43,072 nt of DNA from an uncultured Candidatus Sumerlaeota bacterium (lineage in GTDB: Bacteria; Sumerlaeota; Sumerlaeia; MWCT01; JAUWMI01): contig CAZVVA010000002.1 of NCBI GenBank assembly GCA_964630455.1, positions 1 to 43,072 on the forward strand, in the 5' to 3' direction. Below, piece by piece: positions 7,177 to 43,072 of this stretch. The notes under the pieces were generated by a model. The model had not been told where the DNA came from, did not search any database, and saw only the letters and a program-made list of their open reading frames with translations. The position numbers were made by a program, and so were the translations under genes. The first letter of the stretch is position 1, and every line of letters begins with the position of its first letter.

Positions 7177-7317
7177 TTTCTATATTGGGTTAAAAAAGGT
7201 TTAGCATTGCTTAGGCTTTTTCAAGTTGACAGGGAGACTAAATTTTAATTGACGTACACCGCAGAATATAGCATGTTTAATTCCGTTTAATATCTCTGAA
7301 AAGAAAGGAGAAGGCCG

Positions 7318-8273: not shown

Positions 8274-8291
8274 GGTTCAAATACAGTCGCT
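8274..8291 (+). repeat. Degenerate direct copy of the 3' (T-arm/acceptor) part of tRNA-Pro
   Basis: 'GGTTCAAATaCAGTCGC' at 8274-8291 matches tRNA positions 7152-7169 'GGTTCAAATcCAGTCGC' at 17/18 nt, in the same orientation and 1122 bp downstream. Flanking bases match only partly, and no full cloverleaf can be folded. Confidence 0.6.
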
Positions 8292-8314
8292 TCCACAATT
8301 AACATTTATGTGAG

Positions 8315-10006: not shown

Positions 10007-10355
10007 GGACGGGCACCTAATTGCGCTCGCTTTTGATTCCGGAGGCAGGTATAAAGTTTTGGGAGTGGCTTTTTGGATTTGTTATATATCCCTTGAAATA
10101 TAATGCATTGATCGTTGAGAAGGCGACGTGTACGTGTAAGATTGACTTCTCCGACGAGGCCGTCTCTAATATTTATCACAGCACCCGGATGCTTTAAAAT
10201 ACGCCCCTTTGCAGAGCCTGCTAAGGTCGGAGAAATACACGGCAGTTCTTCACCTCTATTTTAAATACAAGAGGTCGCAAAACAAAAAATAAGCAGCTCG
10301 TTAGCTGGAGATTTTCTTCGCAAAGCGACTTCTCGGAGTCATTTGGTATCTTTCC

Positions 10356-11879: not shown

Positions 11880-12047
11880 ACTGCAAGGGAAGATCAAAAC
11901 ACATATAATTTCACAGAACCTTATTGAGAGAAGACAAAGTCAATATTATTTATCTTGTGTAAAACTATAAGGCTCTAGAAGACTGATACAGTTGATAGAC
12001 ACCTTCAGAAATCAGAGAAAGTAATACAAGCCAGGGGCCCTTTAATC

Positions 12048-12998: not shown

Positions 12999-13489
12999 AA
13001 AATAATCTATAGTTTTGCGCCTGCGTGGTTGTTCCATAACTTTGCAACAAAAACGAGACCGAATATTACCTTTCTATTTCTTGCCGATGTTCCGCGATGC
13101 AAAACCATAGCATTTGTATTGGATAGGGAAACTGCATGAAGAGCGAATTCGACTCCTTGGCAGACTTGGGGTTTTAAAGGAAGGCAAATCAATGCTCTGT
13201 GGCACAGTTGCTCGGCCAACCGGAAATTTAGCAGTCTATTTTCATTAATTGACATAATATATATTCTTGGTGAGCACCACCCACGTATTGCATTGAAGAT
13301 CTTTCATGTTGCTAATTTCCACGCTAATGTGATCATGCGACAAGGAGGTGTCCCGCTATTCATTGACAATCTCATGCTCTTGTTGTAGGCGGTCTATTTG
13401 TTTGTTTCAACGAGACAAAACTTGATTCAATTACCAGATTTTGTTCATTGCTGCAAAATTCCTAATCCTGTTGAAAGGAAGTGTTCGTA

Positions 13490-16400
13490 ATGAAAAATCT
13501 CGCAGGGGTTGCTTTCTTAACCTTTTTCCTCCTGTGTAGCTTTGGACAGCCAGATGCTATAGCTACAAATCCCACTGCCCAAATAGAAGTAGAGCCATCT
13601 ACTACAGTAGAAGTAGGAGAAGAAGTATTATTTGATGCAACCGGCTCTGTTGATGATAAACCCTTAGTAGAAGGTAAATTTGAATGGCAATTTGGAGACG
13701 GATATACCTTAATGGAGGGATATCCATATTATTACATTTATGATGGTGGTATTACCTGCAGTCATTTTTATATGCAGCCAGGAACATACACTGTCACTTT
13801 AACTGTAACAGATATAGATGGAAACCAAGACACAGATACTAAGACCATGACAGTTATAATGTCTCTTTATGGCCCACCAAAAACTGATAATATAGAACTG
13901 CTTCATGCTAACTTCCATGGTCACATTGCCCAGTATATCTATGCAAGGATAGCTGATACTGCAACCCAGACCGCCAAGATAAAAGTTATGATAAAAGGTG
14001 ATAGTGGCTATGAGCAAGTTATACACCAAAGCCCTGCATCGGCAGGAGAAGAGATAAAATTCTTACTTAGAAACTCACTCCTTCCAGCTGGAAACTACTA
14101 TTTAATTGTTCAGCTGCTAGATTCTTCCGATGGATTGGTTGACCAAGTTTCTGAGAAATTCTCAAAACCCTATGATGGAATACCTCATGTAGGTATAGAT
14201 GAAAACAACGCCATCTGCATAGATGGTGTACCTTTCTTTCCTGTGACACCGTTTATAGTGACTGAAGGCTATGAAATGGATCACTATGCTGCTGCAAAAT
14301 TGATTAATACTCTTTATGCTGAAGGATGGTATCCGGGACATGATTTGGATACATGGAAAGACTATCTTAATGAAGGCTCTAATCATGATTTATATGTTAT
14401 AGGACCTAATGCATATTGGATGACTGATGTTCCTGCACGTAAATTTATGAGAAATGCTGACATTAATAATCTTGTTAATTATGTTACTGAAACAAAGAAC
14501 TACCCTGCTCTTTTGATGTGGGCGTATGTTGATGAACCAAGCCTAGGAGGCTGGGGAGCATATACACCACCTCCTGTTTTAAGAAGCTGGACTTATAAAA
14601 CTCATCAGCTTGATTCACAACATCTTGTAGCTGTTAATTTTTATGGATATTCTTATCTTCCGGGTATGAGTGGAACGCACTACACTATGATGAACAAGTA
14701 TAGTTATTATGGGGATGAGAGTCTTTCTATTTTTGGTAACGCTGAGGAGTTTGGCGGGAAAAGACAGCACGTTGTTGATGTAAATGGTTTTGATATTTAT
14801 CCCGTAGAGTTTGGAGTAACCATGGAAAGATATGCAATAGCAATAGATAACTTGATAGGATGGAATTACAATTTAATTCCTGCAATGTCTTTTATTGAAA
14901 CTCAGGATATTGGACAGAGTGCGGGATCACCATATGCACCAACAGCAGAGCAGATAAGAATGGAAAACTGGCTTAATGTTGTCCATGGCATTAAAGGAAT
15001 TAACTGGTTCCCACTTTTTAAACCAAGACCTGCTGAGAATGATGGTGCAATGGCAGAGTTTGTAAGACAAATAACAGCATTAACACCAGTAGTCTTAGGT
15101 CCAGAGCCAGAAAGAGGAGTTGTTGATAATGCCAATGTCTGGGGAAATAGAATAGATACAATGTTAAGAGAAGATAGTGAAAACATCTACATCTTTGCTG
15201 TAAGAATAACAGAGGTAGACGGAAGCACAGGCGGTCCTCATCCAGATGATGTCGGAGACAGAACAGTAACATTTACAGTTGAGGGCTTAACAGACAATAC
15301 AATTGTTTATGAGCCTGCAGAATTTATGAAAATTAGTTATGAAAATCATGGAACTCCGGCTGGAGGAAGGTATTTTAACTTTAATACAAATGCGCCCATT
15401 ACCCCAGGCACTCTACTTGTTGCAGGAAAGATAAATGAAGAATATTTTGGCTGGCGTTTCTTTTTTGATAATGGAGACGGAACACTTTACGGATTAAACT
15501 CTGGCATGACAGGAACAGTAAATTATGAAACAGGCCAAGTCTATGCTGACTTTGGAACATCTAATAATATCTATGCGGGTGAAGAATATGTAAGAGCAAT
15601 GTATCAGCCTAATCTTACTGATAGAATTGTAGGAATTATAACCGGAAATACATTCACAGACACATTTGCTCCCAATGATGTACATATATACAGAATACCT
15701 AAAGAACCTGCAACTGAACCAATAATAAGCGTTACACCAGCATATGGAATTAACTTTGGTAATGTTAATGTAGGTGAGTATAAAGATGAAACCTTCACAG
15801 TTAAAAACATGGGAGTAGGTATATTAGAAGGAACTGCATCTGTAGATTCTCCATTTAGCATTATATCAGGTGGAAGCTATTCTCTCTCAGCTGGTGAATC
15901 TCAAGATGTAGTGGTAAGATTTACTCTAGCAGAAGCTGGTTCAGTATCATCTACTATAACATTCACTGGTGCAGATGGTGCAACAAGGACTCTCTCCGGA
16001 ACAGGCGTTATAGTTGACACAGAAGCACCAACAGTACCAACAAACCTTGCAGCCACAGTAATATCAACTAGCCAAATAAACGTCTCCTGGAATGCATCCA
16101 CTGATAATGTACGGGTTTTAGGTTATAAGATATACAGAGATGGAGTTATGGTGGCAACATCTGCTACTATTAGCCACTCTGATACAGGTCTTAGTCCTTC
16201 TACTACATACACATACAGAGTATCTGCATATGATGCTGCTGGAAATGAATCTGATAAATCAACCCCTGTCTCTGCTACTACATTAGCTGATACAACCCCA
16301 CCGTCTATTGTATCAGTAACTGCACAAGAGACATCTGTTAATATTGTCTTTAGTGAGCCCATAAATAAATCGTCAGCAGAACGTAAAGAAAATTATAATA

Positions 16401-18223
16401 TCAATGATGGTATAATATCAATAATCCAGGCTTCTCTTTCAGTTGATCTTGTAACTGTCACATTAACAACTTCTTCTCATACAGATGAGCTAACCTATAC
16501 CTTAACAGTAGAAGATGTAAAAGATACCGCTTTGAATCCAATCCAGCCAACCCAGATAGATTATGTATATAGAGCTGATGTAACTGATGGTTTAATTGCT
16601 CACTGGAAACTTGATGAAGGAACTGGCACAATTGCACAAGACTCTTCAGGTAATGGTCATGATGGAACTTTAATTAATGGCCCAGTATGGACGACAGAGG
16701 GAAGAATTAATTATGCTTTAGATTTTGACGGAAGTAATGATAAGGTTACAGTTCCTCACCATGATGATTTAGACCCTGAATCAATAACAGTTGCTGCATG
16801 GGTTTGTTTGGAGCAATCAAAAACATGGAGTGCTGTATTAACTAAGGATGAACAAGTTTCTTATTGGCTTGGAGTAGGAGGCACAACACCTATTTTTCTA
16901 TTAAGTCCTGATGGTTCAAGTGGGAGGCATATTATATTTTGGGCAGATTCTGGTATGACTTTAAATACCTGGCATCATATAGCAGCTACTTATGACGGGA
17001 ATTATGTACAATTGTATATTGATGGCTCATCAAGCGGAAGCCCTCAAGGTTATAATGGGGGAATTTACCAAGGCACTTCACAAGTTTTAATTGGTGATAG
17101 TATTACATGGCAGACTTTTAGCAATGCATTTAATGGCATCATTGACGATGTTCGTATCTATAACAGAGCTTTGAGTCAGGAAGAGATTCAATCTATCTAT
17201 TATGCAGCTCCCATTCCGCAGTACACCTTTGATTCAAGTCTTGAAGGCTGGCGTTTCGTGACAAACGTTGGCTACGGTCCAGTTACCTCCGGATATAGTG
17301 GTGGCCGAATTAGTATCAGTTCAGCGAGTGATACGACAAACCGCGTGGGATTCTGGAGCGGGCCGCTGGACATTCCTTGCTTGGCGGGTAATGTGTATCG
17401 GGCCAAGTTCCTGGTCTCCTCCAGTGAAGCCACGGCGTCTGCGAATCCGCAGTTCCGCATGCGATGGTTCCAGGATCAAGCTCTGGAGTCCGCATCGCAC
17501 GTTGTGAACGCATCAGCCCCGCACAGCAACTCCTTGCCAACTGATCCAGCACAGCGAGAATACCCCAGCTACTTTGCGCCGATCTTCGCATACAAGCTTG
17601 GTGTTGCATTTGATATGCTTGACTTCGACGTCTCTCAGTATGGCACGCACTATGTGGATCAGGTTACAGTGGACCGGTTTCCACGCCCGGGATCCAGCAC
17701 AGCAGTCAAGGCGTATACCGATTCTACTGACTTTGCCAACTGGTCATTCTTGTCAGGCATTGGCGGCTACGGTCCAGTTACGTCCGGCGGTGCTGGCACT
17801 GGCACGCTGTCCATTACGTCCAGCCTGGCGAACTTTGGCAATTCGGGATTCTGGCAGTCGAGCGCGACGGCAAATGAGCTGACGTATGTGGCGGATAAGC
17901 TCTACCGGGCGACATACACTCTGAGCGCGACTGACGCGGATCGAAACGACTTGGCACAGGTGAGACTGCGTTGCCAGAGTGAAGACGGCCAGATGACGGC
18001 GGCGATGGAGCTGAACAGCCAAGGCCTAGGTGGCCCAGGCGCAATGCCAGCACTTGCTGGTACTGACTACGAGGTCTACTGGGAGACCCCAACTCTGCCC
18101 GGCTCACCAACGGCGTCACAGGATGGGTTCGTCGTGACGATTGATATGCTTGACTTCGACACGGCGAAGGGCGGTACCATCTACATGGACGGTGTTGCGA
18201 TTGATTATCTTACGATTCCTTAG
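13490..18223 (+). CDS. Giant secreted multidomain protein: signal peptide, PKD, clan GH-A-like glycanase region, Ig-like, FN3, Big-like, LamG, and two tandem uncharacterised C-terminal modules
   Basis: ATG 13490 follows AAAGGAAG, and the signal peptide is 'MKNLAGVAFLTFFLLCSFGQPDAIA'. The PKD domain reads 'FDATGS...FGDG...GTYTVTLTVTDIDGN'. TIM-barrel-like motifs are 'LLMWAYVDEPS' and 'SFIETQD'. The FN3 domain reads 'PTNLAATVISTSQINVSWNASTDNVRVLGYKIYRDG...YTYRVSAYDAAGNES'. The LamG domain reads 'ALDFDGSNDKVTVP...NTWHHIAATYDGNYVQLYIDG...DDVRIYNRALS'. Confidence 0.8.
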   Translation: MKNLAGVAFLTFFLLCSFGQPDAIATNPTAQIEVEPSTTVEVGEEVLFDATGSVDDKPLVEGKFEWQFGDGYTLMEGYPYYYIYDGGITCSHFYMQPGTYTVTLTVTDIDGNQDTDTKTMTVIMSLYGPPKTDNIELLHANFHGHIAQYIYARIADTATQTAKIKVMIKGDSGYEQVIHQSPASAGEEIKFLLRNSLLPAGNYYLIVQLLDSSDGLVDQVSEKFSKPYDGIPHVGIDENNAICIDGVPFFPVTPFIVTEGYEMDHYAAAKLINTLYAEGWYPGHDLDTWKDYLNEGSNHDLYVIGPNAYWMTDVPARKFMRNADINNLVNYVTETKNYPALLMWAYVDEPSLGGWGAYTPPPVLRSWTYKTHQLDSQHLVAVNFYGYSYLPGMSGTHYTMMNKYSYYGDESLSIFGNAEEFGGKRQHVVDVNGFDIYPVEFGVTMERYAIAIDNLIGWNYNLIPAMSFIETQDIGQSAGSPYAPTAEQIRMENWLNVVHGIKGINWFPLFKPRPAENDGAMAEFVRQITALTPVVLGPEPERGVVDNANVWGNRIDTMLREDSENIYIFAVRITEVDGSTGGPHPDDVGDRTVTFTVEGLTDNTIVYEPAEFMKISYENHGTPAGGRYFNFNTNAPITPGTLLVAGKINEEYFGWRFFFDNGDGTLYGLNSGMTGTVNYETGQVYADFGTSNNIYAGEEYVRAMYQPNLTDRIVGIITGNTFTDTFAPNDVHIYRIPKEPATEPIISVTPAYGINFGNVNVGEYKDETFTVKNMGVGILEGTASVDSPFSIISGGSYSLSAGESQDVVVRFTLAEAGSVSSTITFTGADGATRTLSGTGVIVDTEAPTVPTNLAATVISTSQINVSWNASTDNVRVLGYKIYRDGVMVATSATISHSDTGLSPSTTYTYRVSAYDAAGNESDKSTPVSATTLADTTPPSIVSVTAQETSVNIVFSEPINKSSAERKENYNINDGIISIIQASLSVDLVTVTLTTSSHTDELTYTLTVEDVKDTALNPIQPTQIDYVYRADVTDGLIAHWKLDEGTGTIAQDSSGNGHDGTLINGPVWTTEGRINYALDFDGSNDKVTVPHHDDLDPESITVAAWVCLEQSKTWSAVLTKDEQVSYWLGVGGTTPIFLLSPDGSSGRHIIFWADSGMTLNTWHHIAATYDGNYVQLYIDGSSSGSPQGYNGGIYQGTSQVLIGDSITWQTFSNAFNGIIDDVRIYNRALSQEEIQSIYYAAPIPQYTFDSSLEGWRFVTNVGYGPVTSGYSGGRISISSASDTTNRVGFWSGPLDIPCLAGNVYRAKFLVSSSEATASANPQFRMRWFQDQALESASHVVNASAPHSNSLPTDPAQREYPSYFAPIFAYKLGVAFDMLDFDVSQYGTHYVDQVTVDRFPRPGSSTAVKAYTDSTDFANWSFLSGIGGYGPVTSGGAGTGTLSITSSLANFGNSGFWQSSATANELTYVADKLYRATYTLSATDADRNDLAQVRLRCQSEDGQMTAAMELNSQGLGGPGAMPALAGTDYEVYWETPTLPGSPTASQDGFVVTIDMLDFDTAKGGTIYMDGVAIDYLTIP

Positions 18224-18274
18224 TATTAGAGATATACTTGGATCAAGCAAAGGGCAGGATATGAAGCAAAGAGG

Positions 18275-18312
18275 GGTAAAAGAACCACTTTACGTCTCTT
18301 ACCTGTTTTTTC
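18275..18312 (+). terminator. Possible Rho-independent terminator of the giant gene
   Basis: The stem GGTAAAAGA (18275-18283) / TCTCTTACC (18295-18303) pairs at 8 of 9 positions with an 11-nt loop, followed by a T6 run at 18306-18311. It lies in the convergent gap between the + and - gene sets. Confidence 0.4.
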
Positions 18313-18479
18313 ATTTTCGGCGCAAAGGAAAAATTCTCAGTAACTGCTAGTGCTGCACGGGTAGAATATGAGCTACCATAAACTAACTTTGTGGCAATTT
18401 GAAAATGCAAGTGCCAATATAAATGCTTTCAAATTATGAAAGGCCAAAGGCCATCCCGCCAAATTATCTAGCAGTATGT

Positions 18480-19676
18480 TTACTTTGTCGAGCTTGCAGA
18501 TGTTTGCTTTCCTCGAATTCGTTGTCGCCATCTGGTTTTCACTTTGCTTAGAAATCCCATTCTCCTCATAGCGAATTCTCCCAGAGCTGAGATTCCAGAG
18601 CAGGTTCCTCTGATTAGATTAATTGTCTGAGGTTTAAATCGCCGGGAGAAAAGATACACCGTAACCTCAGGCCAAGAGCATGTGCAGTAGGATCTTTTGT
18701 AATCAGCGTGGCCAAAGCCAAAATCAATTTGTTCTATACTATTAGAATTACACAACTCCTCCAAGACTTTGACAAATAATAGTGTTCCTAGACTAAATCG
18801 TCTCCATTGCGAATCATACCCAATGTAGTTAAGGTGTAATGTATTTCTATATTGAATTCCAATCTGGAATGCTGAAGGGACATTTTTACAGTATAGCACA
18901 TGGGCTTTTAGCCAGCCAAGTCTGGCTCTTGAAGCAAGCAATTTTCGGTATTTCTCATTGTCCACGAAACTAACGCCCATTGCAAACTGGTATGTCTTTC
19001 GAGACACAAATCCTGCATCTTTGGAAAGTCTTGAAACGTCGGATTCTTGTTCGTAGCTCTTCACATACCACTTCCCCCTCAGATTATCTGTCAGACGCCG
19101 CATCTGCCGTCTTATTTCATGACGATGCTTGGTTGATAGCCTTCCATAGAATTCCTCAACATTACGTGGGATTTCCATATTCCAATGAACGTTAGTCAGC
19201 CAGGGACGTCCTCGTTCGAGTCCTCTCACTTTTCTTCGCAAGTACTTGTACAGGTTGGATTCAGAATGAATGTGGTTAAAGGTCACTACATCTGCCGTAC
19301 CAGAGGCTAAAGCCATACGCAAATGTCGAAGCAGAAAGTCGAATTCATTCTCGCCAGGATCTCCCAAAACGCCGCCATATACAAAAACAATTTTCTTAAT
19401 GCTGGGCTCCCATATCTTCTTATATCCTATTGTGCACTTGATCTTGCCGGAAGATAGCCGGCCTACTACAAGCGTTTGTAATTTGTTTTTCGCCTTAATA
19501 GCTACAATGTACGGAGATTCCTCTTCCCCACAAAACTCAAGATTAGCCAAATACCCGTCAATGTCGGCATTGGGAGTGGTTTCAGCACAAGAATCCTGCA
19601 ATCTTACCCAATCCTGGCGTATAGATTCGACCCCTTCGAGACTGGTTATGGTTTCGATTTTTAAATCAGTTTTCAT
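18480..19676 (-). CDS. GNAT-fold acyltransferase of the CelD/BcsL (Acetyltransf_6-like) type
   Basis: The protein is 398 aa. Its C-terminal motif 'FSLGTLLFVKVLEE....IEQIDFGFGHADYKRSY' resembles the 'DfGrG..YK' signature of CelD-like GNAT proteins, and the overall length and layout fit that family. Confidence 0.6.
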   Translation of the reverse strand: MKTDLKIETITSLEGVESIRQDWVRLQDSCAETTPNADIDGYLANLEFCGEEESPYIVAIKAKNKLQTLVVGRLSSGKIKCTIGYKKIWEPSIKKIVFVYGGVLGDPGENEFDFLLRHLRMALASGTADVVTFNHIHSESNLYKYLRRKVRGLERGRPWLTNVHWNMEIPRNVEEFYGRLSTKHRHEIRRQMRRLTDNLRGKWYVKSYEQESDVSRLSKDAGFVSRKTYQFAMGVSFVDNEKYRKLLASRARLGWLKAHVLYCKNVPSAFQIGIQYRNTLHLNYIGYDSQWRRFSLGTLLFVKVLEELCNSNSIEQIDFGFGHADYKRSYCTCSWPEVTVYLFSRRFKPQTINLIRGTCSGISALGEFAMRRMGFLSKVKTRWRQRIRGKQTSASSTK

Positions 19677-19805
19677 TTGAAAACCCTGGATTAGAATATT
19701 CAGCGACGATCAGAGGCATGGGTGAAGAAGAGCATTTGCATGGTTAACCTGAGAATCTCATTTGTTCTGTAATTTGTTTACAGGTATATTCTAGTTAGTA
19801 GACAC

Positions 19806-20732
19806 TTATTTTAGGCCAGCACGTATTCCCTTGAGTAGACTTTCGATCTGTCTTTCATCCATTCCTTTTAGCCGTTCAAAGAGATCCTTTCGAACCCTCC
19901 TGATAAGAGAAAACAGCACGGGATGAAGGTGCAGATATGCGGGCAGTGCAAGCACACGGGCGCCACGTTCGATCTTAAAATTATTCACGCTCTGTTTTGC
20001 AGATAACGTCCCAGTGTATATGCACTGGATATCTGATTGTTTAGCGGCACATATTCTGACCGTATGCAACATTAGCTCAGAGGAACGCAAATTCATCCCT
20101 TCAAGAGAATTCAAAGCGCTAAGGAGGAACAAAACATCTTTCACCAAGCAGTTTGTCCATATACTTACAAGCCCATTCTTGGAATAGGCACCCCAAATTC
20201 GTACCTTAGGGAAGCGAAATAGGAGCCGTGCCCAATCAGCAAATACCTTCTCATCGATCCGGTCTTTTCTGTATGAATAACCTGTCCGCTTATAGAAGGA
20301 AAGGTAAACTTGAAACCCTTCCTCAATAAGTTGATCCACACTTTTTATCAGACATACTGTTAAGCATTTGGATGGCTTTTGGATTCTTCGTCGGAAGCTC
20401 GACCCAAGACTGTTTTCCTTATAAGCTTGAGGTTGTTCGAAGACCAAAAGGTTCATATAAGAATTGTGTAGGTGTTTTGCAGACACAGGATGTTGAACCG
20501 CTGCAAATTTGCCAAAAGATCTTTTTGTCTCGCTAGTAGACAATTCCACAAAGGGAAACAGCGGCCTGTAGAAATATGGACGTACTCGGTGCCACCAAAT
20601 TTCCCCTTTCTTCTGGAGTTTTGCTCCCATTGCTTTTTCAAATTCGGCGTACTCGTCTATGCTCATGCGCTTCCACAAGGGCATTGCGTCTATTGCAGTG
20701 TTTTCAGAAAGCCTCTGAGTCAGTGTTCTCAT
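19806..20732 (-). CDS. Fem/GNAT-fold acyltransferase-like protein, paralog A
   Basis: The protein is 308 aa and is clearly paralogous to 21573..22439: 'MSIDEYAEF..AMGA', 'FYRPLFPF.EL', 'FADWAR.LFRFPKV', 'NKFKIERGARVL..PAYLHLH'. The '..FK...GA' tail resembles Fem/GNAT (COG2348-like) proteins. It shares an ATGA overlap with the upstream methyltransferase stop. Confidence 0.5.
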   Translation of the reverse strand: MRTLTQRLSENTAIDAMPLWKRMSIDEYAEFEKAMGAKLQKKGEIWWHRVRPYFYRPLFPFVELSTSETKRSFGKFAAVQHPVSAKHLHNSYMNLLVFEQPQAYKENSLGSSFRRRIQKPSKCLTVCLIKSVDQLIEEGFQVYLSFYKRTGYSYRKDRIDEKVFADWARLLFRFPKVRIWGAYSKNGLVSIWTNCLVKDVLFLLSALNSLEGMNLRSSELMLHTVRICAAKQSDIQCIYTGTLSAKQSVNNFKIERGARVLALPAYLHLHPVLFSLIRRVRKDLFERLKGMDERQIESLLKGIRAGLK

Positions 20733-21553
20733 AGTTGTTTCTTGCCACGTGCCGTTTTTTTAACAACAAAGAAAAGACTCTTGTCCGGAGAAAAGCTAGT
20801 CAGGAAGGACGGTCGCTTGCCCTTTTCGATATTGCGGCTGGAGTTGAAATAGATAAGCTTTAATCCGAGCTGTTGGAGTGTCTTCTGGATGCCAAATGGT
20901 GTGGAATAATGGTGATACCAGCCTTTGCGAACTTTATCCCCCCATTCCCAACCTGGTTTACTCCGACCGCTAATTCTCCGGCCAAGGTACTCTAGGGTAA
21001 GCCAGATCCACGCGAGCCATCTTTTGCCAAACGCCAGCCCAGATTTGCAAGAAAGAATGAAGCATCCACCTGGTTTGAGTATTCGGTGGACGCCCTCTAG
21101 TAATTGCCTACGGCTGGCTTTTCCTGGGATTTGGTCAAATCCATTGAATGAAAAGAGGACGTTCTGATACGATTCATCGGGAAAAGAGAGTTTTCGCGCA
21201 TCCATGGTCCGGAAATCAAGTTCAAGACCGTATAGAGCCGCCTGACTTTTCGCGGCCTCAATCATTTCCGGAATGAGGTCAATTCCAGTGACCTTAAATC
21301 CCTTTTGCGCCATGGCAATGGTTGTTCGACCAGCGCCACATCCTAAATCAAGTACGGAACTCTGCGGCTCAAAGTACCGCTCAATCAAAATTTCTTCAGA
21401 TCGCCATAAGCCGACCGTCATGTATTTGCGGACAAACTTAGGATTGGAATACTCGGCCTTAACGAAGTCATCAGGTGAAAGAATGCCCTTGTCCGGCCAA
21501 TCTATGACAATTCTTTCTTTTGAGCTTCGTATGTCCGCCATTTCCCTTACCAA
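20729..21553 (-). CDS. Class I SAM-dependent methyltransferase
   Basis: Motif I 'VLDLGCGAGRTTIAMAQKGFKVTGIDLIPEMI' and motif post-II/III 'ILKPGGCFILS'. Confidence 0.85.
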   Translation of the reverse strand: MVREMADIRSSKERIVIDWPDKGILSPDDFVKAEYSNPKFVRKYMTVGLWRSEEILIERYFEPQSSVLDLGCGAGRTTIAMAQKGFKVTGIDLIPEMIEAAKSQAALYGLELDFRTMDARKLSFPDESYQNVLFSFNGFDQIPGKASRRQLLEGVHRILKPGGCFILSCKSGLAFGKRWLAWIWLTLEYLGRRISGRSKPGWEWGDKVRKGWYHHYSTPFGIQKTLQQLGLKLIYFNSSRNIEKGKRPSFLTSFSPDKSLFFVVKKTARGKKQL

Positions 21554-21572
21554 TATCCCAAAACCATAGCTG

Positions 21573-22439
21573 TTATCTACACATTGTAGTTTTCATTTTG
21601 TTTTGCACCTGTCTTTCATCCAATCCTATCAGTCGATGGTACAGACTTTTTCGGGCGAACTTGATCAAAGAAAGAAGCCCACGATGAAGATGTAGATAAG
21701 CAGGCATAACAAGAACGCGCGCCCCTCGCTCGATCTTGAACTTGTTTAAACTCTCTTTCTGTGCGAGCCATCCAGAATATATACATTTGATTCCCTCATG
21801 CTTTGCAGCAAAATCTCTTATTGTGTGAAGCATCAGCTCCGGCGACTGCAATTCAAGCGCTTCACCAGAATTGATGCTGTCTAGATAAAATAGGGTATCT
21901 TCCACTAAGCAGGTGATGTCGATTTGCACCAATTTATTCTGGGAATATGCCCCCAGGACTACAACTTTGGGAAAGCGAAATAGGCTACGAGCCCAGTCGG
22001 CAAATATTCTTGGATTTCTTCGATCGCTCTTGTAGGAGAAATGTGTCCGTTTATAGAAACATAGGTACACAGGATACCCTTGAGCAGTAAACTCCTCCTG
22101 ATCAAGTATGGGACGTATCGTCAGACGTTTGTACGTCTTCAAGATTCTTCTTTTATTAACCTTTGGCAAGGTACTGAGTTTATATGAGTCCGGCTGTTCG
22201 TAAACGATGAAATTCATGTGAGAATTGCAGGTCTCTCCTCGAGGAACTGCATGTTGCATAGCACCCAGGCATCGCGGATGTTCGTCTACATCTCGAGAGG
22301 TCAATTCTAAGAAAGGGAAGAGCGGGCGATAAAAGAAAGGATGCTGTTGTTGCCACCAGACCCCATTTTTTTGCCGGAGATTTGCTCCCATTGCCCTGTT
22401 GAACTCAGCGTATTCATCTATACTCATTCGTTGCCACAT
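21573..22439 (-). CDS. Fem/GNAT-fold acyltransferase-like protein, paralog B
   Basis: The protein is 288 aa and is collinear with paralog A over its whole length (motifs listed there). Confidence 0.5.
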   Translation of the reverse strand: MWQRMSIDEYAEFNRAMGANLRQKNGVWWQQQHPFFYRPLFPFLELTSRDVDEHPRCLGAMQHAVPRGETCNSHMNFIVYEQPDSYKLSTLPKVNKRRILKTYKRLTIRPILDQEEFTAQGYPVYLCFYKRTHFSYKSDRRNPRIFADWARSLFRFPKVVVLGAYSQNKLVQIDITCLVEDTLFYLDSINSGEALELQSPELMLHTIRDFAAKHEGIKCIYSGWLAQKESLNKFKIERGARVLVMPAYLHLHRGLLSLIKFARKSLYHRLIGLDERQVQNKMKTTMCR

Positions 22440-22453
22440 GGCGAGTTACCAGA

Positions 22454-23671
22454 TTATTTTCCGTACCTTGGGCTCGAATATTTGCAATGCCTTTGCAAGC
22501 CCCCTCGGATTTTTGAAAATGCCTTGCTTACGACATACTGGATCCACGCAATAAATGGCATGGGATCTTTCCAAGACAAAATAGCAAAAATCTTCTTCTT
22601 CTTCAAATAAGGCTTTACGTACTCCCTGATTGTGAAATGCTCTATATTGCGTGACATTATCAGGTGCATCAAATCTTTTGTAATATCTATCCAGTGAATT
22701 CCCATTTTCTGTTTACGAAAAGGTGGGATTTCGTTGTACATTAAGTGTCGGTATATGATCCATGGGAAATTTATGCCGCATTTTACTGCCAGAGAGCCGG
22801 AAAGGTTAGTTCTGCCATTTACTTCAATAAATTTGTAAACACCGTCGCGAATATCACGTTTAAATTCTGTGCATGAGAAACCGGAAAAGCCTAGCTCCTT
22901 GAGTATAGTTCGGCTCGGCTCAATGATTTCCGGTATCCGCTTGCTTAGAAGTACCCTTGGGGATCCGAACTTCGGCGGATGAACCCTGACTTTTTCAGCT
23001 GTGAATTCTGCCACGGGCGAGCCATCCCAGAAGTATGAGTTGTAATTGACACCATATGTGTCGTCGCCCGGGATCAACTCTTGAATCATCACTTCCAACC
23101 CCGCTTCTGACGCTCTGTTGAAAGATGTATATAGATGTTCGTCATTTTTAACTTCGAACATCTTACATCCGAAGATTTCATAGTACTTGTGTGCCTCGCA
23201 TTAATTGACCAGGCAAGGGTAGTCTATGTCATTTTTAAATCTTTCAATATCTTCTACTGAGTTAGGGACCACGGTCTTAGGAGATGGTATTCCTAATTTC
23301 TCTGCAAGACGGTATGTGTGTTTCTTTACTACTATTTTTTCGAGGAGCTCCCAATCAGGAGCAGCTACAACGTATGCCGATTGCAGTTCATGCTTATGCT
23401 TGGAAATAGCAACGATTTCAAACTCGTCACAGGGAAGAAGCAGGCTTCCTTTCCAGTCTTTTCCTTTGTCAAGAAGGAAAGAAATGAATTCGTCTTCCGA
23501 GGTTAGAACGTTTGGTACCCAGACTTTCTGTCGGATGTACTTTGACACCTGCCCCATCTCGCTTTTTTGGTAATACAAGGCTATAATAGGGACGCCCTTC
23601 TTTCCTAGGCTTCTAATAACTGCCAGTCCTGGAATGAGACAGGGAATAACTATTGCCGTTTTATTATTCAT
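22454..23671 (-). pseudogene. ATP-grasp carboxylate-amine ligase (COG3919 / D-aspartate-ligase-like) interrupted by one in-frame TAA
   Basis: The track ORFs 23201..23671 (pre-ATP-grasp, 'AIVIPCLIPGLAVIRSLGKKGVPIIAL...DIDYPCLVN*') and 22454..23161 are in the SAME frame. Read on the minus strand, the junction is ..TAC CCT TGC CTG GTC AAT TAA TGC GAG GCA CAC AAG TAC TAT GAA ATC TTC GGA TGT AAG ATG TTC.. Read through the stop, the product would be ~404 aa, a normal length for this family. Confidence 0.7.
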
Positions 23672-23697: not shown

Positions 23698-24801
23698 CTA
23701 ATTGTGGCCGAAGTCCGCAATTGCCGCAGTCACAGTTTCAATTTGCTCGGCGCTTAATTCGGGATATATAGGCAAAGAGAGGAGTTCCTGGACGCACTTT
23801 TCAGTCACTGGAAACGAGCCCTTTTGATAGCCGAGGGACGCGTATGCTGGCTGTAAATGAATTGGAACTGGGTAGTGAATTCCACAGTGAATACCTTTTT
23901 TAGCCAAAGCATTTTTCAGATTGTCCCGATTTCTTGTGCGAATTGCATATATGTGATAAACATGTCTTGCATACTCTGCTTCCGTGGGAATTACCATGCT
24001 TGAGTTCTCAAGCAATTCATTGTAGCGCCGTGCACAGGTGCGTCGTGCTTTGTTCCACTCGGATAGATATTTCAATTTTACACTCAGAATAGCGCCCTGA
24101 AAACCGTCCATGCGTGAATTCCATCCGATCCACATGTGTTCATGTTTCTGCTTTTGGCCGTGATCGCGGAGCATGCGAATTCTTTCTGCAAGGGACGCAT
24201 CGTTTGTGACTATAGCGCCCGCCTCGCCGTATGCACCGAGGTTCTTGCCCGGGTAAAAGCTAAAACATCCCGTGCTACCCAGGGAGCCCGCAGGCTGTCC
24301 TTTGTATTGAGCCCCATGTGCCTGGGCTGCATCTTCTACGACATAGAGACCTTTTTCCTTTGCCGTTGCCAGAATTGCGTCCATATCGGCAGTGTGACCA
24401 AATAGATGAACAGGAATGATGGCTTTTGTCTTTTTCGTAATCACTGATTTCAGCAAATCAGGATTCATGTTGTAGGTTTGCTCATCAACATCTACGAAAA
24501 CGGGCCTAGCGCCAGTGAAACTAATAGCTTCTGCTGTGGCAATGAACGAATTCGGGGCAGTGATCACTTCATCCCCGGAACCAATTCCAAGAGCGAGAAG
24601 ACTTAGCCAAAGCGCTTCCGTGCCACTGCCCACACCCACGGCAAACTTGCAGCCACAAAATGAAGCAAACTCTTTTTCAAATCTTGCAACAGCCGGACCG
24701 CTTGCAAATGCGGTGTCGTCCATAACCCGCGTTAATGCTTCGTGTATCTCATCTCGGATTGTAGCATATTGTACTTTCAAGTCTAGAAATGGAACAGTCA
24801 T
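23698..24801 (-). CDS. DegT/DnrJ/EryC1/StrS-family PLP-dependent sugar aminotransferase
   Basis: N-terminus 'VPFLDLKVQY..IRDEI', 'GSGTEAL', and PLP-lysine region 'CFSFYPGKNLGAYGEAGAIVTND'. The protein is 367 aa. Confidence 0.9.
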   Translation of the reverse strand: MTVPFLDLKVQYATIRDEIHEALTRVMDDTAFASGPAVARFEKEFASFCGCKFAVGVGSGTEALWLSLLALGIGSGDEVITAPNSFIATAEAISFTGARPVFVDVDEQTYNMNPDLLKSVITKKTKAIIPVHLFGHTADMDAILATAKEKGLYVVEDAAQAHGAQYKGQPAGSLGSTGCFSFYPGKNLGAYGEAGAIVTNDASLAERIRMLRDHGQKQKHEHMWIGWNSRMDGFQGAILSVKLKYLSEWNKARRTCARRYNELLENSSMVIPTEAEYARHVYHIYAIRTRNRDNLKNALAKKGIHCGIHYPVPIHLQPAYASLGYQKGSFPVTEKCVQELLSLPIYPELSAEQIETVTAAIADFGHN

Positions 24802-25280
24802 TTCTTCTTCTCCTCATTGATTCTGCGCATAATTCGAGCAGGATTTCCGGCGACGATTGTAAACGGTGGAACATCTTTTGTCACAACACTTCCCGCACCC
24901 ACAATAGCCTTCTCGCCAATTGTGACTCCGCATAGTAAAGTGGTACTCGAACCGATTGAGGCTCCTTTTCTTACCAGGGTTGGCACGCAGACCCAGTCTT
25001 CATCTGTCTGCAATGTACCATCTTCTTTAGTTGCATGGGGAAACGCATCGTTAATAAAGGTCACATTATGTCCGATGAACACATTGTCTTCGATAGTTAC
25101 CCCTTCGCAAATAAATGAATGACTCGAAATCTTGCAATTTTTACCTATTTTGCTTCCTTTCTGGATCTCTACGAAGGTCCCGATCTTCGTATTATCGCCA
25201 ATCTCGCAGCCATAAAGATTCACGAAGTCATAAATTTTGACATTCTTGCCAAGCTTAACGTCAGAAGCGATATTTTTCAT
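24798..25280 (-). CDS. Left-handed beta-helix (hexapeptide repeat) sugar N-acetyltransferase
   Basis: Hexapeptide repeats 'IGDNTKIGTFVEIQKGSKIGKNCKISSHSFICEGVTIEDNVFIGHNVTF' and 'IGSSTTLLCGVTIGEKAIVGAGSVV'. It shares an ATGA overlap with the downstream DegT start. Confidence 0.85.
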   Translation of the reverse strand: MKNIASDVKLGKNVKIYDFVNLYGCEIGDNTKIGTFVEIQKGSKIGKNCKISSHSFICEGVTIEDNVFIGHNVTFINDAFPHATKEDGTLQTDEDWVCVPTLVRKGASIGSSTTLLCGVTIGEKAIVGAGSVVTKDVPPFTIVAGNPARIMRRINEEKKK

Positions 25281-25283
25281 TCG

Positions 25284-25739
25284 TTAAGACCGTTTAAGGA
25301 AATCTATGATTATTTGTTCAATACTACATTTTGGAGGAACATAGCACTTAAACTCTAAACTTCGTACCTTCATTAATACATCTTTTAGTTTATCAAGATC
25401 TTTGCACCATATTAGATAGCCCTCGCGCGACAACTTCTCCAGAATTTCGTCTTGATGTTTATCAGGGATATTCGGATTACTGACGCCAACAAACTTTACA
25501 TGCCGACGAAGTAACTCGAAAGTTGTTCCTACGCCACCAGAACCCACTACCAGCGTCGCTTCCTTAAAATAGTGGTCTAGGGAGGGCGCTAGGCGAAACC
25601 ATTCGCAATTATGAGGCTCATATTTCCCCGTGGCTATCTGCATAATAACTGGTTCATCGATCAACGGCACAAGTTCATCCATACGTTGTATGAGCTGATC
25701 GTTGCCTACATTAGAACTGCCAACAGTAACGAAGATCAT
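25284..25739 (-). CDS. Alg13-like (GT28 C-terminal domain, PssE/Cps14G-type) glycosyltransferase subunit
   Basis: 'MIFVTVGSS...' is followed by 'LVVGSGGVGTTFELL', as in the catalytic half of split UDP-sugar transferases. Start ATG 25739 overlaps the TAA of the upstream gene (TAATG); the track start at 25868 lies inside that gene. Confidence 0.7.
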   Translation of the reverse strand: MIFVTVGSSNVGNDQLIQRMDELVPLIDEPVIMQIATGKYEPHNCEWFRLAPSLDHYFKEATLVVGSGGVGTTFELLRRHVKFVGVSNPNIPDKHQDEILEKLSREGYLIWCKDLDKLKDVLMKVRSLEFKCYVPPKCSIEQIIIDFLKRS

Positions 25740-26326
25740 TAGAATGGTCTCCCAGCGTAAATTGCGCGAGGATAGAGCGTAAGCTGTTCTTCCCATTGGA
25801 CAAAGAAAAGATCCGCAAAGAGATGATACGCAACAAAGCCAGATAAGGATCGGCTCTTTATACGGCAAGCTGACTCAATGAATATTGTCTTTCGGCGCAA
25901 AAGCCAAGCAGCAAACATCACCGCTAGCGCACCACCACTACCGTTGGTAATTATGGCATGTGCGCGAACTTTTTTTAACAGCCTTATGGATTGTATAACG
26001 CTGGGCATAAAGCAAATTACTTTTCTCATCAGGGAACATACACCGCCGGCTCTTATTGAGCGTAGGCTTGGCCAAATTTTGTAAACTGGCCCGGGGACGC
26101 GAATTTTGTGTTTGGTTAACAGGTCATCCTTGCAAATAATGTAGGATATTTCTATTTCAGGGGCGAACCTATCTGCAAGAGCCAATATTTCAAACGCATG
26201 ACCTCCTGCCATTAGGACAACGGTTACGGATATCTGGCTCTTCGGCGTCCTTCCGTTGTGTGTGGGAATTTCTTCTTTTTGTCCCGGTTTCAATAGCAAG
26301 TCAGAAGTCTCATTTGTCTTCCGCAA
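25739..26326 (-). CDS. Alg14-like (PssD/Cps14F-type) glycosyltransferase membrane-anchoring subunit
   Basis: 'VVLMAGGHAFEILALADRF', 'IITNGSGGALAVMFAAWLLRRKTIFIES..R.KS.SLSG' and 'ADLFFVQWEE' match the Alg14-like family layout. It is paired with an Alg13-like partner. Confidence 0.7.
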   Translation of the reverse strand: MRKTNETSDLLLKPGQKEEIPTHNGRTPKSQISVTVVLMAGGHAFEILALADRFAPEIEISYIICKDDLLTKHKIRVPGPVYKIWPSLRSIRAGGVCSLMRKVICFMPSVIQSIRLLKKVRAHAIITNGSGGALAVMFAAWLLRRKTIFIESACRIKSRSLSGFVAYHLFADLFFVQWEEQLTLYPRAIYAGRPF

Positions 26327-26564
26327 TGGGCAACCACCTTCTGGGGGTATCCAGCCAGGATAGTTTTCATATTGTTAACGGAGCCGAGTCTCTTCTGCTA
26401 TTATTCTTAGCATTCTCTGTTCTTCATCTAGTTTTTGCTCAATGTGCCATCTTACACGAGCGTTGGCCAGCGAAAGCCTTTGCATGAAATCGATTTACTG
26501 ACCGGCAATTGGCTTCAGCCCTTACAATCCTATGGCCTATGCGGCTAATCTGGGAACGCTCTTT

Positions 26565-27720: not shown

Positions 27721-28791
27721 TTAGCCCATGTGCTTATAGAGTAAGTTACCTACAAGAGTGAGCAACGGATTAGGGAGGTACGAGAAGACCTGCTTTGCAA
27801 CTCTCATTTTCCATCCCTCGGTGCTATCATGTGCGCACGTGTTAGCTGATCTATAATAGCAAATTCTTCTGCGCAGAGTCCCCCACCGATCTTTGAACGT
27901 AGTCAGGCCGGTATTGTCAACGCTGCTGCGTCCCATGTCGAATTCTTGAGCTCCATCTTGTTGGGCCTCCTGCATGGCACGCCAAAGAAGAGCAACCGTG
28001 CCTCCCAGGTTCTTATACCTTGGATCCGAGCATCCGTACTTATAATAGTGTTTATTCTTATAAGAAAGCGTTACAATTGCAGCAATAGGTTGATCGTTCT
28101 TGAACGCAATACGTATTTTGAATCTATTGTTTAAGCAGTGTTGTAGGTTGCGAAACCATTGCTTCGGCTGAGGTGGCAATTGATGTTTACGGCGTGTCAT
28201 AAGCAGCATATGATAGAAAGCCGACTGAAGCTTATTCGACGCCCCTTCCTTAAATGTTAGGCCCTCGCGCTGCGCACGCCGAATTGGCCGCTGGATGCAG
28301 TCTTTATGAAAACCTTGCATCAGTTCTTCAGGCACAGGCTTCAGATTCAGGCAGTGAAAAAAGTAAGCGTCGCTTTCAGCAAGTGATCCATTTTCCAGCA
28401 GCCAGTCCTCATCCATCCGCAGCGGCCTTAATTCCACGTATTTCCGATGCTGTTCAGTCTGATCGCTTTGCAACCTCTCCAGAATTTCATGCAGGGCATC
28501 AGCAGAATCTATGAGCGGCTGGCAATGGTCCGAAAATGGTAAAGAAACCAGACGTTTTCCAGTCAACCAGCTATCTACTTTGCAAAACACAATTGCATTG
28601 GTCAGATCTGATACTGGACTTGAGGTGGTATACGCAACGGGTTCATAGCCGTAAGTACGATATAATGCTTCCAGCCATTCGCGGGTGTGAAAAATAGAAG
28701 CATCGGGGCGTCTCTCCAGAAATTCTGGCCACCGCGCATCGTTTAATGGATTGGTACAGAAGACGGCCATCATACCTCCCAAATTCGCCAC
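27721..28791 (-). CDS. FemAB-family (COG2348-like) acyl/aminoacyl transferase, of the type associated with PEP-CTERM-style EPS loci
   Basis: 'ARWPEFLERRPDASIFHTREWLEALYRTYGYEP', 'LTGKRLVSLPFSDHCQPL' and the C-terminal 'YYKYGCSDPRYKNLGG..LLWRAMQEA...FDMGRS......GLTTFKDRWG' resemble Fem/GNAT duplicated-domain proteins. Confidence 0.65.
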   Translation of the reverse strand: MANLGGMMAVFCTNPLNDARWPEFLERRPDASIFHTREWLEALYRTYGYEPVAYTTSSPVSDLTNAIVFCKVDSWLTGKRLVSLPFSDHCQPLIDSADALHEILERLQSDQTEQHRKYVELRPLRMDEDWLLENGSLAESDAYFFHCLNLKPVPEELMQGFHKDCIQRPIRRAQREGLTFKEGASNKLQSAFYHMLLMTRRKHQLPPQPKQWFRNLQHCLNNRFKIRIAFKNDQPIAAIVTLSYKNKHYYKYGCSDPRYKNLGGTVALLWRAMQEAQQDGAQEFDMGRSSVDNTGLTTFKDRWGTLRRRICYYRSANTCAHDSTEGWKMRVAKQVFSYLPNPLLTLVGNLLYKHMG

Positions 28792-30065
28792 AAGAAATCC
28801 TGGAGCGTCATACAGTCAATATCACCGCTCACGCACAGGGCGCTTCGGCAGCCTTGCGGCCATCGCCAAAGCCTCACCATGGGAGTATCAGCAGAGTCTA
28901 TTGCATGAAGTACATTAAAAGCCCTTTCCTGGCTTAGCGCATTGGATTCATCTAGGACATAAGCAGCTCGAGCACAGTGGATCGGATCCAATGTGAGGAA
29001 TCCTTCCTCGTGTAAAAAATCTCGCCAGCTCGAATGGCATTGGTTGCTGAGTGCAACCCCTGGTAGAATCCCTCTGCCAGACAAGATCCGTTTACTTGTC
29101 TGAGTATAATTGCCAAAGAATAGGTGGTCTTTGGATCTGCCCATGCCCCGGCAGAGTACCGTTGCTTCCTTGGGTGTCTTCAGATTTAGTGTGTAATTGT
29201 CCCCTGCAATCTCGAGATGGAAACTTGACTTCCTGCGTTGCTTCCACCAATTGGCAATTGTTGCAAGCTGTGCCTTGAAAACCGGCTGTGATAGCTGGTC
29301 TGCGATCGTCAAAACATAGTCCAGCGCCTCATCGCAAAATGGCAAGCGTTCGTGATGAAGCTGCACTGTGAAGATTTCCCCACGCGCATGGCTTTGTTCT
29401 AAGATTGACTGCCAGATGCGTCCGATGCGCTTCTTGTCACGCTTGAGCTGGAGACGATCCACACAGGCTTCGTCATCTGGAATGGATACCGGAATTTCCA
29501 CATGGCCGTCTATCAAGTGTGGAATGACGCGATATTGCGTCGCTGACTGGCTGCTATAAAGCTCCAGAACCTTCTGATATGCCTCCCATGCCTGAGAAGG
29601 AAACTCATCCTGGTCCACCACTGGCCAGTGGACAACAAAATTACTTGCCCAGGCAAAATTGCAATCACTTACCGCCAGATGAGTGTCATTATTGCTGCGC
29701 AAATAGGGCGAGCGAAACCCACACATGCGAATCCCGGCCTTTTCAAAGATCTCTATCGCTCGCTCAAAATGCTCTCGCTGTTTCTCAAACGGAAGTTGCG
29801 TGTAATCCGTATGCACTAACCCATGCACAGCGAACTCCACACCCTGTGCCTGCAATCTAATAATTGGCTTCGGATAGCGCCGTAAGATGCAAGCAGTGGC
29901 CGGGAATGTTGGCAAAATACCGTGAGCCTTGCAAATATCGGTCATCCTTTGCAACTGCTTCTCCATGCGTGCCGGCGTAAAGCCAAAGCGGCAAAATAGG
30001 CTTGCGACGCGGTGCACAAGGTTACCGAGTCCTCGAGAGTTAAATATAAATCTTGCAAGGTTCAT
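28770..30065 (-). CDS. Atypical NodB-like polysaccharide deacetylase-family protein (431 aa)
   Basis: It has 'GILPTFPATA', 'GVEFAVHGLVH' (H-x3-H), 'GFRSPYL', 'EIPVSIPDDEA' and 'FTVQLHHERL'. It lacks the canonical N-terminal TFDD motif and ends with 'WPQGCRSALCVSGDIDCMT...'. It overlaps the next gene by 22 nt. Confidence 0.55.
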   Translation of the reverse strand: MNLARFIFNSRGLGNLVHRVASLFCRFGFTPARMEKQLQRMTDICKAHGILPTFPATACILRRYPKPIIRLQAQGVEFAVHGLVHTDYTQLPFEKQREHFERAIEIFEKAGIRMCGFRSPYLRSNNDTHLAVSDCNFAWASNFVVHWPVVDQDEFPSQAWEAYQKVLELYSSQSATQYRVIPHLIDGHVEIPVSIPDDEACVDRLQLKRDKKRIGRIWQSILEQSHARGEIFTVQLHHERLPFCDEALDYVLTIADQLSQPVFKAQLATIANWWKQRRKSSFHLEIAGDNYTLNLKTPKEATVLCRGMGRSKDHLFFGNYTQTSKRILSGRGILPGVALSNQCHSSWRDFLHEEGFLTLDPIHCARAAYVLDESNALSQERAFNVLHAIDSADTPMVRLWRWPQGCRSALCVSGDIDCMTLQDFLWRIWEV

Positions 30066-38449: not shown

Positions 38450-38456
38450 TTGCTTT

Positions 38457-42937: not shown

Positions 42938-43072
42938 AAAACCCTCCAGCGATTTTGCCTTTGGTAAAACCACAACCAAATCAACTTACATGGTGTCTGC
43001 AGATAACTTTTCGCAGGATACTTTTGCCTAATCGTCAGTGCAGCAAGCAAACACCTGGTTAAGCAGCAACAA

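Follow-up and report, generated by a model that had tools for sequence, protein, structure and literature searches.

Architecture of the operon

The window analysed here is a 43,072-nucleotide stretch of contig CAZVVA010000002.1, from an uncultured Candidatus Sumerlaeota bacterium. It harbors a tightly packed minus-strand gene array of ~24.5 kb, running from Wza (42233-42979) to position 18480, the same 24.5-kb operon as delineated in the original prediction, an earlier note made from the sequence. The subject of this study is the distal part of this array, the interval 18480-23671. We read it as the tailoring end of an exopolysaccharide operon of the Wzx/Wzy type, very probably a module in which Fem-fold transferases add acyl or aminoacyl groups; two of these transferases belong to a family that lacks a name.

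Read from 42979 down to 18480, the array starts with Wza, followed by a Wzc-like protein, a tyrosine kinase, a priming sugar transferase and a GFO/IDH/MocA oxidoreductase, then four GT2 glycosyltransferases, a pyruvyl transferase with its FrhB-like partner, and a Wzy-like protein with 10 transmembrane segments. These are followed by a NodB-like and FemAB-like gene pair, a second NodB-type gene, Alg14/Alg13-like genes, a hexapeptide acetyltransferase and DegT. The FemAB-like gene, the two NodB genes and DegT had been predicted to lie upstream of the segment in the same operon, and they were found as described. The segment itself is filled by six minus-strand open reading frames (ORFs). The gene order after DegT is an ATP-grasp gene (present as two ORFs), the gene of a 288-residue protein, an S-adenosylmethionine (SAM)-dependent methyltransferase, the gene of a 308-residue protein, and that of a 398-residue PF13480 protein. 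The methyltransferase stop overlaps the start of the 308-residue protein gene by 4 nucleotides. As anticipated for the last 5 kb of the operon, the profile search returned no glycosyltransferase family match among the ORFs of the segment. The ratios of non-synonymous to synonymous substitution rates (dN/dS), calculated against three related loci, lie between 0.11 and 0.26 for the segment genes, which are therefore real genes under purifying selection. Counts of promoters and terminators between 18100 and 28000 do not exceed those of shuffled sequence and are therefore uninformative on the sub-operon structure. An Rfam scan of the window yielded a tRNA-Pro as the sole match.

This operon combines several makers of amino sugars or free amines. 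The GFO/IDH/MocA oxidoreductase (37388-38500), DegT and the hexapeptide acetyltransferase form a WbpB/WbpE/WbpD-like trio, DegT being the likely source of the amino-sugar acceptor, and they are accompanied by the two NodB-type deacetylases. The 431-residue NodB-type protein possesses neither a signal peptide nor a transmembrane segment and is therefore predicted to be cytoplasmic, making a cytoplasmic order of deacetylation followed by acylation possible; its gene overlaps that of the FemAB-like protein by 22 nucleotides.

Table 1. Genes of the tailoring segment and functionally related genes upstream in the operon (window positions; strand -, minus).
Feature	Position	Strand	Basis or remark
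NodB-type (CE4) deacetylase, 431 residues	28770..30065	-	paired with FemAB-like gene
FemAB/PF13480 protein, 356 residues	27721..28791	-	PF13480 53 bits, PF02388 46 bits
NodB-type deacetylase, 243 residues	26565..27296	-	hydrophobic anchor or signal at N-terminus
Hexapeptide-repeat acetyltransferase	24798..25280	-	
DegT/DnrJ/EryC1 sugar aminotransferase	23698..24801	-	likely source of amino-sugar acceptor
ATP-grasp N-terminal fragment, COG3919/"D-aspartate ligase" type, 156 codons	23201..23671	-	ends at TAA
Rest of ATP-grasp frame	22454..23200	-	same frame as N-terminal fragment
288-residue predicted tandem-GNAT, Fem-fold transferase, unnamed family	21573..22439	-	AlphaFold2 model and Foldseek
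Class I SAM-dependent methyltransferase, 274 residues	20729..21553	-	PF13649 80.9 bits (cut-off 27), PF08241 69.8 bits
308-residue paralog of the 288-residue Fem-fold protein	19806..20732	-	broken or deleted in L026, L010
398-residue tandem-GNAT protein, PF13480 (Acetyltransf_6, CelD/BcsL-type)	18480..19676	-	71 bits, cut-off 22; last operon gene

A Fem-fold family missed by profile libraries

The 288- and 308-residue proteins are paralogs, with 53% identity (E 3e-111), and flank a class I methyltransferase, exactly the arrangement that had been proposed. The profile searches suggested at the time assigned the 398-residue protein to PF13480 and left the two paralogs without a family: Pfam (E<=0.1), NCBIfam (E<=0.01) and, using a 33-sequence profile, the PDB sequences (E<=10) were all empty for them. 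A word-indexed search of 5.8 billion proteins returned 35 relatives of the 288-residue protein, none of them with a Pfam domain. A profile search run exhaustively over 1.84 billion cluster representatives gave 777 matches at E<=1e-3, including 198 at E<=1e-30. Judged from these searches, the 288-residue type is a genuine, unnamed family of ~780 clusters (at 50% identity) for which neither Pfam nor NCBIfam holds a model. Its nearest named relatives in a genome scan with a 14-sequence family alignment belong to uncultured Syntrophaceae, a "delta proteobacterium", Desulfatibacillum, and metagenome-assembled genomes (MAGs) of Acidobacteriota and Verrucomicrobiota.

The AlphaFold2 model of the 288-residue protein, computed from the family alignment, is confident, with a predicted local distance difference test (pLDDT) value of 93.8 and a predicted template modelling (pTM) score of 0.91, and folds as a tandem GNAT. 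Foldseek comparison of this model with the PDB identified Sbb17/Sba18 in complex with streptothrisamine as the best matches (E 2e-9, TM-score ~0.6), followed by Weissella FemX, the alanyl-/lysyl-phosphatidylglycerol synthase (MprF) domains and ATE1; the Foldseek probability is 1.00 to FemX, Sbb17 and the MprF domains. Aminoacyl-tRNA-dependent transferases account for 22 of the first 24 matches; the remaining two are entries of 2hqy, a protein of unknown function. Not until rank 25 is an acetyl-CoA-dependent tandem GNAT reached, namely VipF (TM-score 0.46). The 308-residue protein is counted as a tandem GNAT because of its 53% identity to the 288-residue protein. In both, the Fem-like fold is visible only through structure prediction combined with Foldseek, and it is at the level of these models that the proposal of three Fem/GNAT-fold proteins in the segment holds.

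Residue conservation was analyzed in 143 members of the 288-residue family aligned to the family profile. In classical GNATs, the Q/RxxGxG/A loop between strand 4 and helix 3 is the signature of acyl-CoA pyrophosphate binding. This loop is not conserved after strand 4 in the family, nor is there a conserved glycine pair at positions 190-200. Residues 93-104 form a conserved basic helix (R/K96 in 93% and R/K100 in 82% of the members), and H205, R208, R238 and G239 are near-invariant. The last two belong to an "F-K/Y-x-x-R-G" segment that recalls the Fem "FKxxFG" motif, and both window proteins carry a lysine at position 235, within this segment. The 288-, 308- and 398-residue proteins, predicted to be soluble and cytoplasmic, are all devoid of transmembrane or hydrophobic segments and bear a net charge of about +16 to +25. 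Taken together, the loop, helix, motif and charge features favour a tRNA donor, short of proof.

The 398-residue protein is, as predicted, a CelD/BcsL-like GNAT. Its model (pLDDT 91.9) is also a tandem GNAT, whose best Foldseek matches are FemX and Sbb17. Its family possesses an invariant K327 within "DFGFGDAxYKRSYG" (the "YK" motif); where the acyl-CoA loop is expected, G297 is the only invariant glycine and Q/RxxGxG/A is absent. The methyltransferase is a conserved partner of the 288-residue family in several loci; profile searches match its generic SAM-binding core alone and point to no O-, N- or C-methylation class.

Decay of the ATP-grasp gene and the invariant core

An in-frame TAA at 23201-23203 splits the ATP-grasp ORF, and the 235-residue ORF listed for the remainder begins at ATG 23161. 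The N-terminal fragment gives weak NCBIfam matches to PRK12767. The frame reads "...DIDYPCLVN*CEAHKYYEIFGCKMFEV..." in the window, to be compared with "YPCL(I/V)KPCEAHKFYE" in the intact orthologs of two related loci (L008, 417 residues; L026, 405 residues). Three base changes within four nucleotides, from AAG CCA in L026 to AAT TAA in the window, put the stop in place of the proline of the conserved "KP" motif and convert the preceding lysine into an asparagine. The lysine of this strand motif contacts ATP in ATP-grasp enzymes. The window copy is hence neither an intact ORF nor a carrier of the conserved lysine of the "hhhKP" strand, and by its sequence the gene is probably inactive in this genome. 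The product of 22454..23200 remains 75-83% identical to the intact L008 and L026 orthologs (dN/dS 0.13-0.21), and both halves of the gene are still at dN/dS 0.12-0.23; the lesion is therefore recent, or it is a sequencing or assembly error. Of the "COG3919-type ATP-grasp ligase" announced for this position, the family label stands and the intact single gene does not.

A comparison with the related loci shows that this gene is not the only one to decay. The five-gene block is confined to the clade of the window (window, L008, L026 and L010). In L008, both the ATP-grasp and the 308-residue type are intact. In L026, which is syntenic with the window at 81-93% DNA identity, the ATP-grasp is intact and the 308-residue type is split in two ORFs. 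In L010, the ATP-grasp is internally deleted, with 63 codons left, and the 308-residue type is cut to 75 codons. The window combines an interrupted ATP-grasp with an intact 308-residue type. From this independent decay of the ATP-grasp and the second paralog it follows that the invariant core consists of the Fem-fold gene, the methyltransferase and the PF13480 gene.

These lesions might also be read as signs that the whole module is accessory, is eroding and does little or nothing for this bacterium; besides the ATP-grasp and paralog lesions, the window lacks an AsnB-like gene that comes after the final gene of the module in L008 and L026. Such a wholesale erosion is improbable, since none of the four related loci has a damaged copy of the 288-residue, methyltransferase or 398-residue gene (dN/dS 0.11-0.23), and the 308-residue gene is intact in the window (dN/dS 0.26). 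The constraint still recorded in both ATP-grasp halves likewise argues that the inactivation is recent or artefactual.

The ATP-grasp family counts more than 800 homologs, labelled "D-aspartate ligase" or "predicted ATP-grasp carboligase" at JGI. Two homologs, 50-56% identical, were examined within their polysaccharide loci, L027 (1624-11610) and L028 (1-10309). Their neighbours are GFO/hexapeptide/DegT trios, two methyltransferases, a second ATP-grasp paralog and a gene resembling phosphatidylserine (PS) decarboxylase; no Fem-fold partner stands beside the ATP-grasp in either locus. Genes without a Pfam domain beside them were considered as hidden members of the 288-residue family and dismissed, as hidden Markov model searches gave no hits and the sequences seem on visual inspection to carry CE4-deacetylase-like motifs. 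These loci thus have the look of another tailoring set for amino sugars, one not yet characterised. Conversely, no ATP-grasp homolog was found in 67 other loci of the 288-residue family (L001-L025 except L008, plus 53 metagenome loci).

To note, the window and L026 form a mosaic. An Alg14/Alg13-like pair (25284-26523) is present in the window only, as is a 563-residue protein without family match at 8315-10006 (within 7183-10221). A 545-residue gene follows the last operon gene in L026 and is absent from the window (18224-18479); its L008 counterpart is weakly similar to asparagine synthase. The tRNA-Pro(GGG) at 7100-7176 adjoins a MerR-family regulator (6489-6890) where the polysaccharide region borders on other genes; this junction is shared with the syntenic L026 and may mark the boundary of a variable island. 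A low-GC stretch (11000-17000, 38-41% against 45-53% elsewhere) spans a flippase, a GT2 gene and most of a 1580-residue PKD/fn3/laminin-G protein (13481-18223). This protein gene converges on the operon; its product has no PEP-CTERM tail, and its middle part is unlike that of its L026 counterpart.

Genomic neighbourhoods of the family

A broader view is provided by the 79 loci of the 288-residue family, 54 of which are non-redundant at 90% identity and 30 of which are assessable, with flanks of 1.5 kb or more to either side. Of these 30 loci, 13 have a FemAB/PF13480-type gene no more than 300 bp from the family gene, and 17 have one within 3 kb. A NodB-type gene is found within 3 kb in five of the 30, and a methyltransferase is adjacent in three. 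The trio of family gene, methyltransferase and FemAB-like gene also occurs in L030/L031, where the family gene is 38% identical to that of the window, and the pair with the methyltransferase in L001, where the family gene (P0008) is ~40% identical. In Syntrophaceae-like MAGs (L011, L013, L025, L033, L034), the family gene lies amid homologs of the GT2, Wzy-like and pyruvyl-transferase genes of the window, with a NodB-type gene adjoining. In the window, the polysaccharide pyruvyl transferase and an FrhB/FdhB-like 4Fe-4S protein are encoded as a pair (33717-36214), homologs of which accompany the Fem-fold family in L022 and L063.

Among the same 30 loci, eight contain an exosortase and 10 encode a protein with a PEP-CTERM-like tail. 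Moreover, a cassette recurs in which a Fem-fold gene without Pfam match is followed by a FemAB-like gene and this in turn by a gene for a small secreted protein with a VPDSG/PEP-CTERM-like tail (e.g. "...IPDGASTALLLGLALSGLSFISRKIRA"); it was observed at L006:1118-5239, L002:8825-11887, L019:9977-15700, L022:9926-15718, L024:5726-13065 and L073:7989-13300. Its hosts are uncultured bacteria, including Verrucomicrobiota MAGs (L019, L022, L024), and an XrtC-like exosortase is near in several cases. Judged by this cassette, Fem-type chemistry may be connected with protein sorting by exosortases. At L002:3800-8803, beside one Fem pair, are found a class-III aminotransferase, an aspartate-kinase-like gene (AA_kinase and ACT domains) and a PGA_cap gene; these neighbours might be the source of an unusual amino acid or have to do with a capsule of poly-amino acid.

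Such contexts raise the idea that the Fem-fold pair, instead of serving to decorate the polysaccharide backbone as such, builds or modifies the acceptor or the substrate of an exosortase system, or that it aminoacylates a protein or lipid in the manner of ATE1 or MprF, whose domains are among the structural matches. This is improbable: no exosortase match was obtained among the scanned ORFs of the 43 kb, no PEP-CTERM tail was seen in the C-termini inspected or flagged by a regular expression, and the family gene stands amid glycosyltransferase, Wzy-like and NodB genes both here and in the five Syntrophaceae-like loci. A more specific version would have the Fem pair, the family without Pfam match and its canonical FemAB-like partner, extend an amino sugar of the exopolysaccharide by a short stem of aminoacyl or peptide nature. 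This stem would be the nucleophile to which exosortases attach PEP-CTERM proteins. The stem idea is unlikely on present evidence, and the window, being devoid of an exosortase, does not suggest it. If true, the stem would be the Gram-negative counterpart of the pentaglycine bridge, built by FemXAB, to which sortase joins LPXTG proteins, and it would give a name to the long-unknown acceptor of exosortases.

A putative mechanism of amino-sugar aminoacylation

The best reading of the locus, by analogy with known Fem-type enzymes, is an aminoacyl-tRNA-dependent decoration of amino sugars by the Fem-fold enzymes, a reading to which we assign an even chance. The amino sugars would be products of the GFO/DegT pathway, or else the cytoplasmic NodB-type deacetylase would unmask them, and they may be presented as nucleotide sugars or on an undecaprenyl-diphosphate-linked repeat unit. 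The Fem-fold enzymes would then N-aminoacylate them with aminoacyl-tRNA as the donor, a step with parallels in FemX acting on peptidoglycan precursors and in Orf11/Sba18/Sbb17 acting on the amino sugar of streptothricin analogs. The 288-residue type and the canonical FemAB/PF13480 type may work as a pair, adding successive residues or modifying different amines, and the product would finally be methylated by the SAM methyltransferase. Gene content, folds, purifying selection, linkage of the genes and the ATP-grasp lesion are what the data show; donor and acceptor, the succession of steps, the target of methylation and the presence of amino acids on the polymer are inferred.

This reading, which is drawn from fold similarity and gene context, has to be weighed against a list of adverse observations. 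Neither by sequence nor by profile do the 288- and 308-residue proteins significantly resemble Fem families (PF02388, PF13480), and hhalign gives a probability of 1.6% between the families of the 288- and 398-residue proteins. Position 235, equated with Lys305 of Weissella FemX by motif and secondary structure, is a lysine in 49% of the 143 members and a tyrosine in 46%. No dedicated tRNA gene stands beside the family genes, unrelated tRNA genes being several kb away. Eight of the 30 assessable loci contain no FemAB-like, NodB-type or methyltransferase gene, no exosortase and no PEP-CTERM-like protein, other polysaccharide genes being left out of the scoring. The original prediction had also proposed to test the co-occurrence of the five-gene block across genomes, and had pointed to a concentration of amide-bond-forming catalysts. 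The block is restricted to one clade in which it is eroding. The concentration is weaker than claimed, given a ligase gene that is interrupted and whose partnership with the Fem-fold genes is not conserved.

Another explanation is that the Fem-fold proteins are acyl-CoA-dependent N- or O-acyltransferases that place acetyl or unusual acyl groups on the polysaccharide without involvement of tRNA. The variable position of the FemX catalytic lysine would fit. So would the name of PF13480, an acetyltransferase (GNAT) domain whose proteins are commonly annotated "CelD/BcsL acetyltransferase", one homolog of the 398-residue protein being labelled "CelD/BcsL family acetyltransferase". Acetyl-CoA-dependent tandem GNATs, the clavulanate protein CBG (2wpw/2wpx), VipF and Eis-like proteins (2hv2/3n7z), match the 398-residue model almost as well as the best hits (E 1e-9 to 1e-10), and match the 288-residue model more weakly. 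The aminoacyl-tRNA enzymes that dominate the structural matches of the latter, the lack of a conserved pyrophosphate-binding motif, and the unusually basic proteins with their conserved Arg/Lys helix speak otherwise, and the operon already possesses a dedicated hexapeptide acetyltransferase. We regard acyl-CoA as a possible but rather doubtful donor, and aminoacyl-tRNA as the more likely one.

Enzymes of the Fem type withdraw charged tRNA from translation and use it in the chemistry of the cell envelope; the cases characterised to date concern peptidoglycan, lipids, the N-termini of proteins, a few antibiotics, and the DNA of phages. Catalogues of FemAB-like genes from exopolysaccharide and PEP-CTERM loci go back to 2006. 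The association of a FemAB-like protein with a polysaccharide deacetylase in PEP-CTERM/exosortase exopolysaccharide loci, represented by TIGR03019 and TIGR03006, is already catalogued. What is new is a separate Fem-fold family, missed by the profile libraries and strongly linked to canonical Fem-like genes, together with its recurrent methyltransferase partner. Our literature search found no paper establishing the chemistry of Fem-like proteins in exopolysaccharide loci, in keeping with the earlier statement that this chemistry is uncharacterised. The ~780 clusters provide concrete candidates for tRNA-dependent aminoacylation of polysaccharides, and the locus is a testable lead into tRNA-dependent glycan modification. 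If confirmed, this would be a new class of glycan modification that could affect biofilm charge, adhesion and protein anchoring, and could bear on what exosortases attach their substrates to.

Comparison with known systems

From the COG3919/"D-aspartate ligase" amidoligases, the window copy differs in being interrupted and in having lost the conserved lysine. Like the window, L027 and L028 associate COG3919-type ATP-grasps with GFO/hexapeptide/DegT trios in polysaccharide loci; outside the clade of the window, these ATP-grasps show no linkage to the Fem-fold family.

In XrtA/PEP-CTERM systems, a FemAB protein (TIGR03019) is associated with a deacetylase (TIGR03006). The overlapping genes 28770-30065 and 27721-28791 of the window reproduce such a pair, both far below the curated cut-offs (112.8 vs 260 bits for TIGR03019, 35 vs 276 bits for TIGR03006). 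Unlike these systems, the window contains neither an exosortase nor a PEP-CTERM protein. Relatives of the 288-residue protein are often near exosortases. One FemAB-like/polysaccharide deacetylase pair has been listed in exopolysaccharide loci (PMC3684757), and a FemX-like GNAT has been noted in the Pseudomonas Pap cluster (PMC7716237).

The 398-residue protein is a clear member of the CelD/BcsL-type PF13480 proteins found in cellulose and exopolysaccharide loci. To our knowledge, the function of CelD/BcsL itself is not established; the name is therefore no evidence for the use of acetyl-CoA.

FemX, FemA and FemB (FemABX, PF02388) have the tandem-GNAT fold in common with the window proteins. 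They are cytoplasmic, act on nucleotide- or lipid-linked glycan precursors and operate as several paralogs in series. The family of the 398-residue protein keeps an invariant lysine in its "YK" motif, and the 356-residue protein matches PF02388. The 288- and 308-residue proteins differ in their Lys305-like position, which is K or Y in this type, and the separate long helical insertion of FemA is not evident from the secondary-structure summary of the window models. The context differs as well: instead of murein, the window genes belong to an exopolysaccharide operon, and the host is probably Gram-negative.

The closest parallel is found in the enzyme group of Orf11, Sba18 and Sbb17 (PDB 9wqw, 9wqx, 9wqy), peptide synthases that depend on aminoacyl-tRNA and serve the biosynthesis of streptothricin-type antibiotics, which resemble the 288-residue protein in fold and in size (~286 residues), although the sequence identity of Sba18 and Sbb17 with it is 13-14%. 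These enzymes sit in natural-product clusters, the window enzymes in a polysaccharide cluster. Orf11 converts streptothrisamine into glycylthricin with Gly-tRNA (PMC12945691). In this reaction, the free amine of an amino sugar is acylated with glycine (PMC12945691), which is the very chemistry proposed for the window enzymes.

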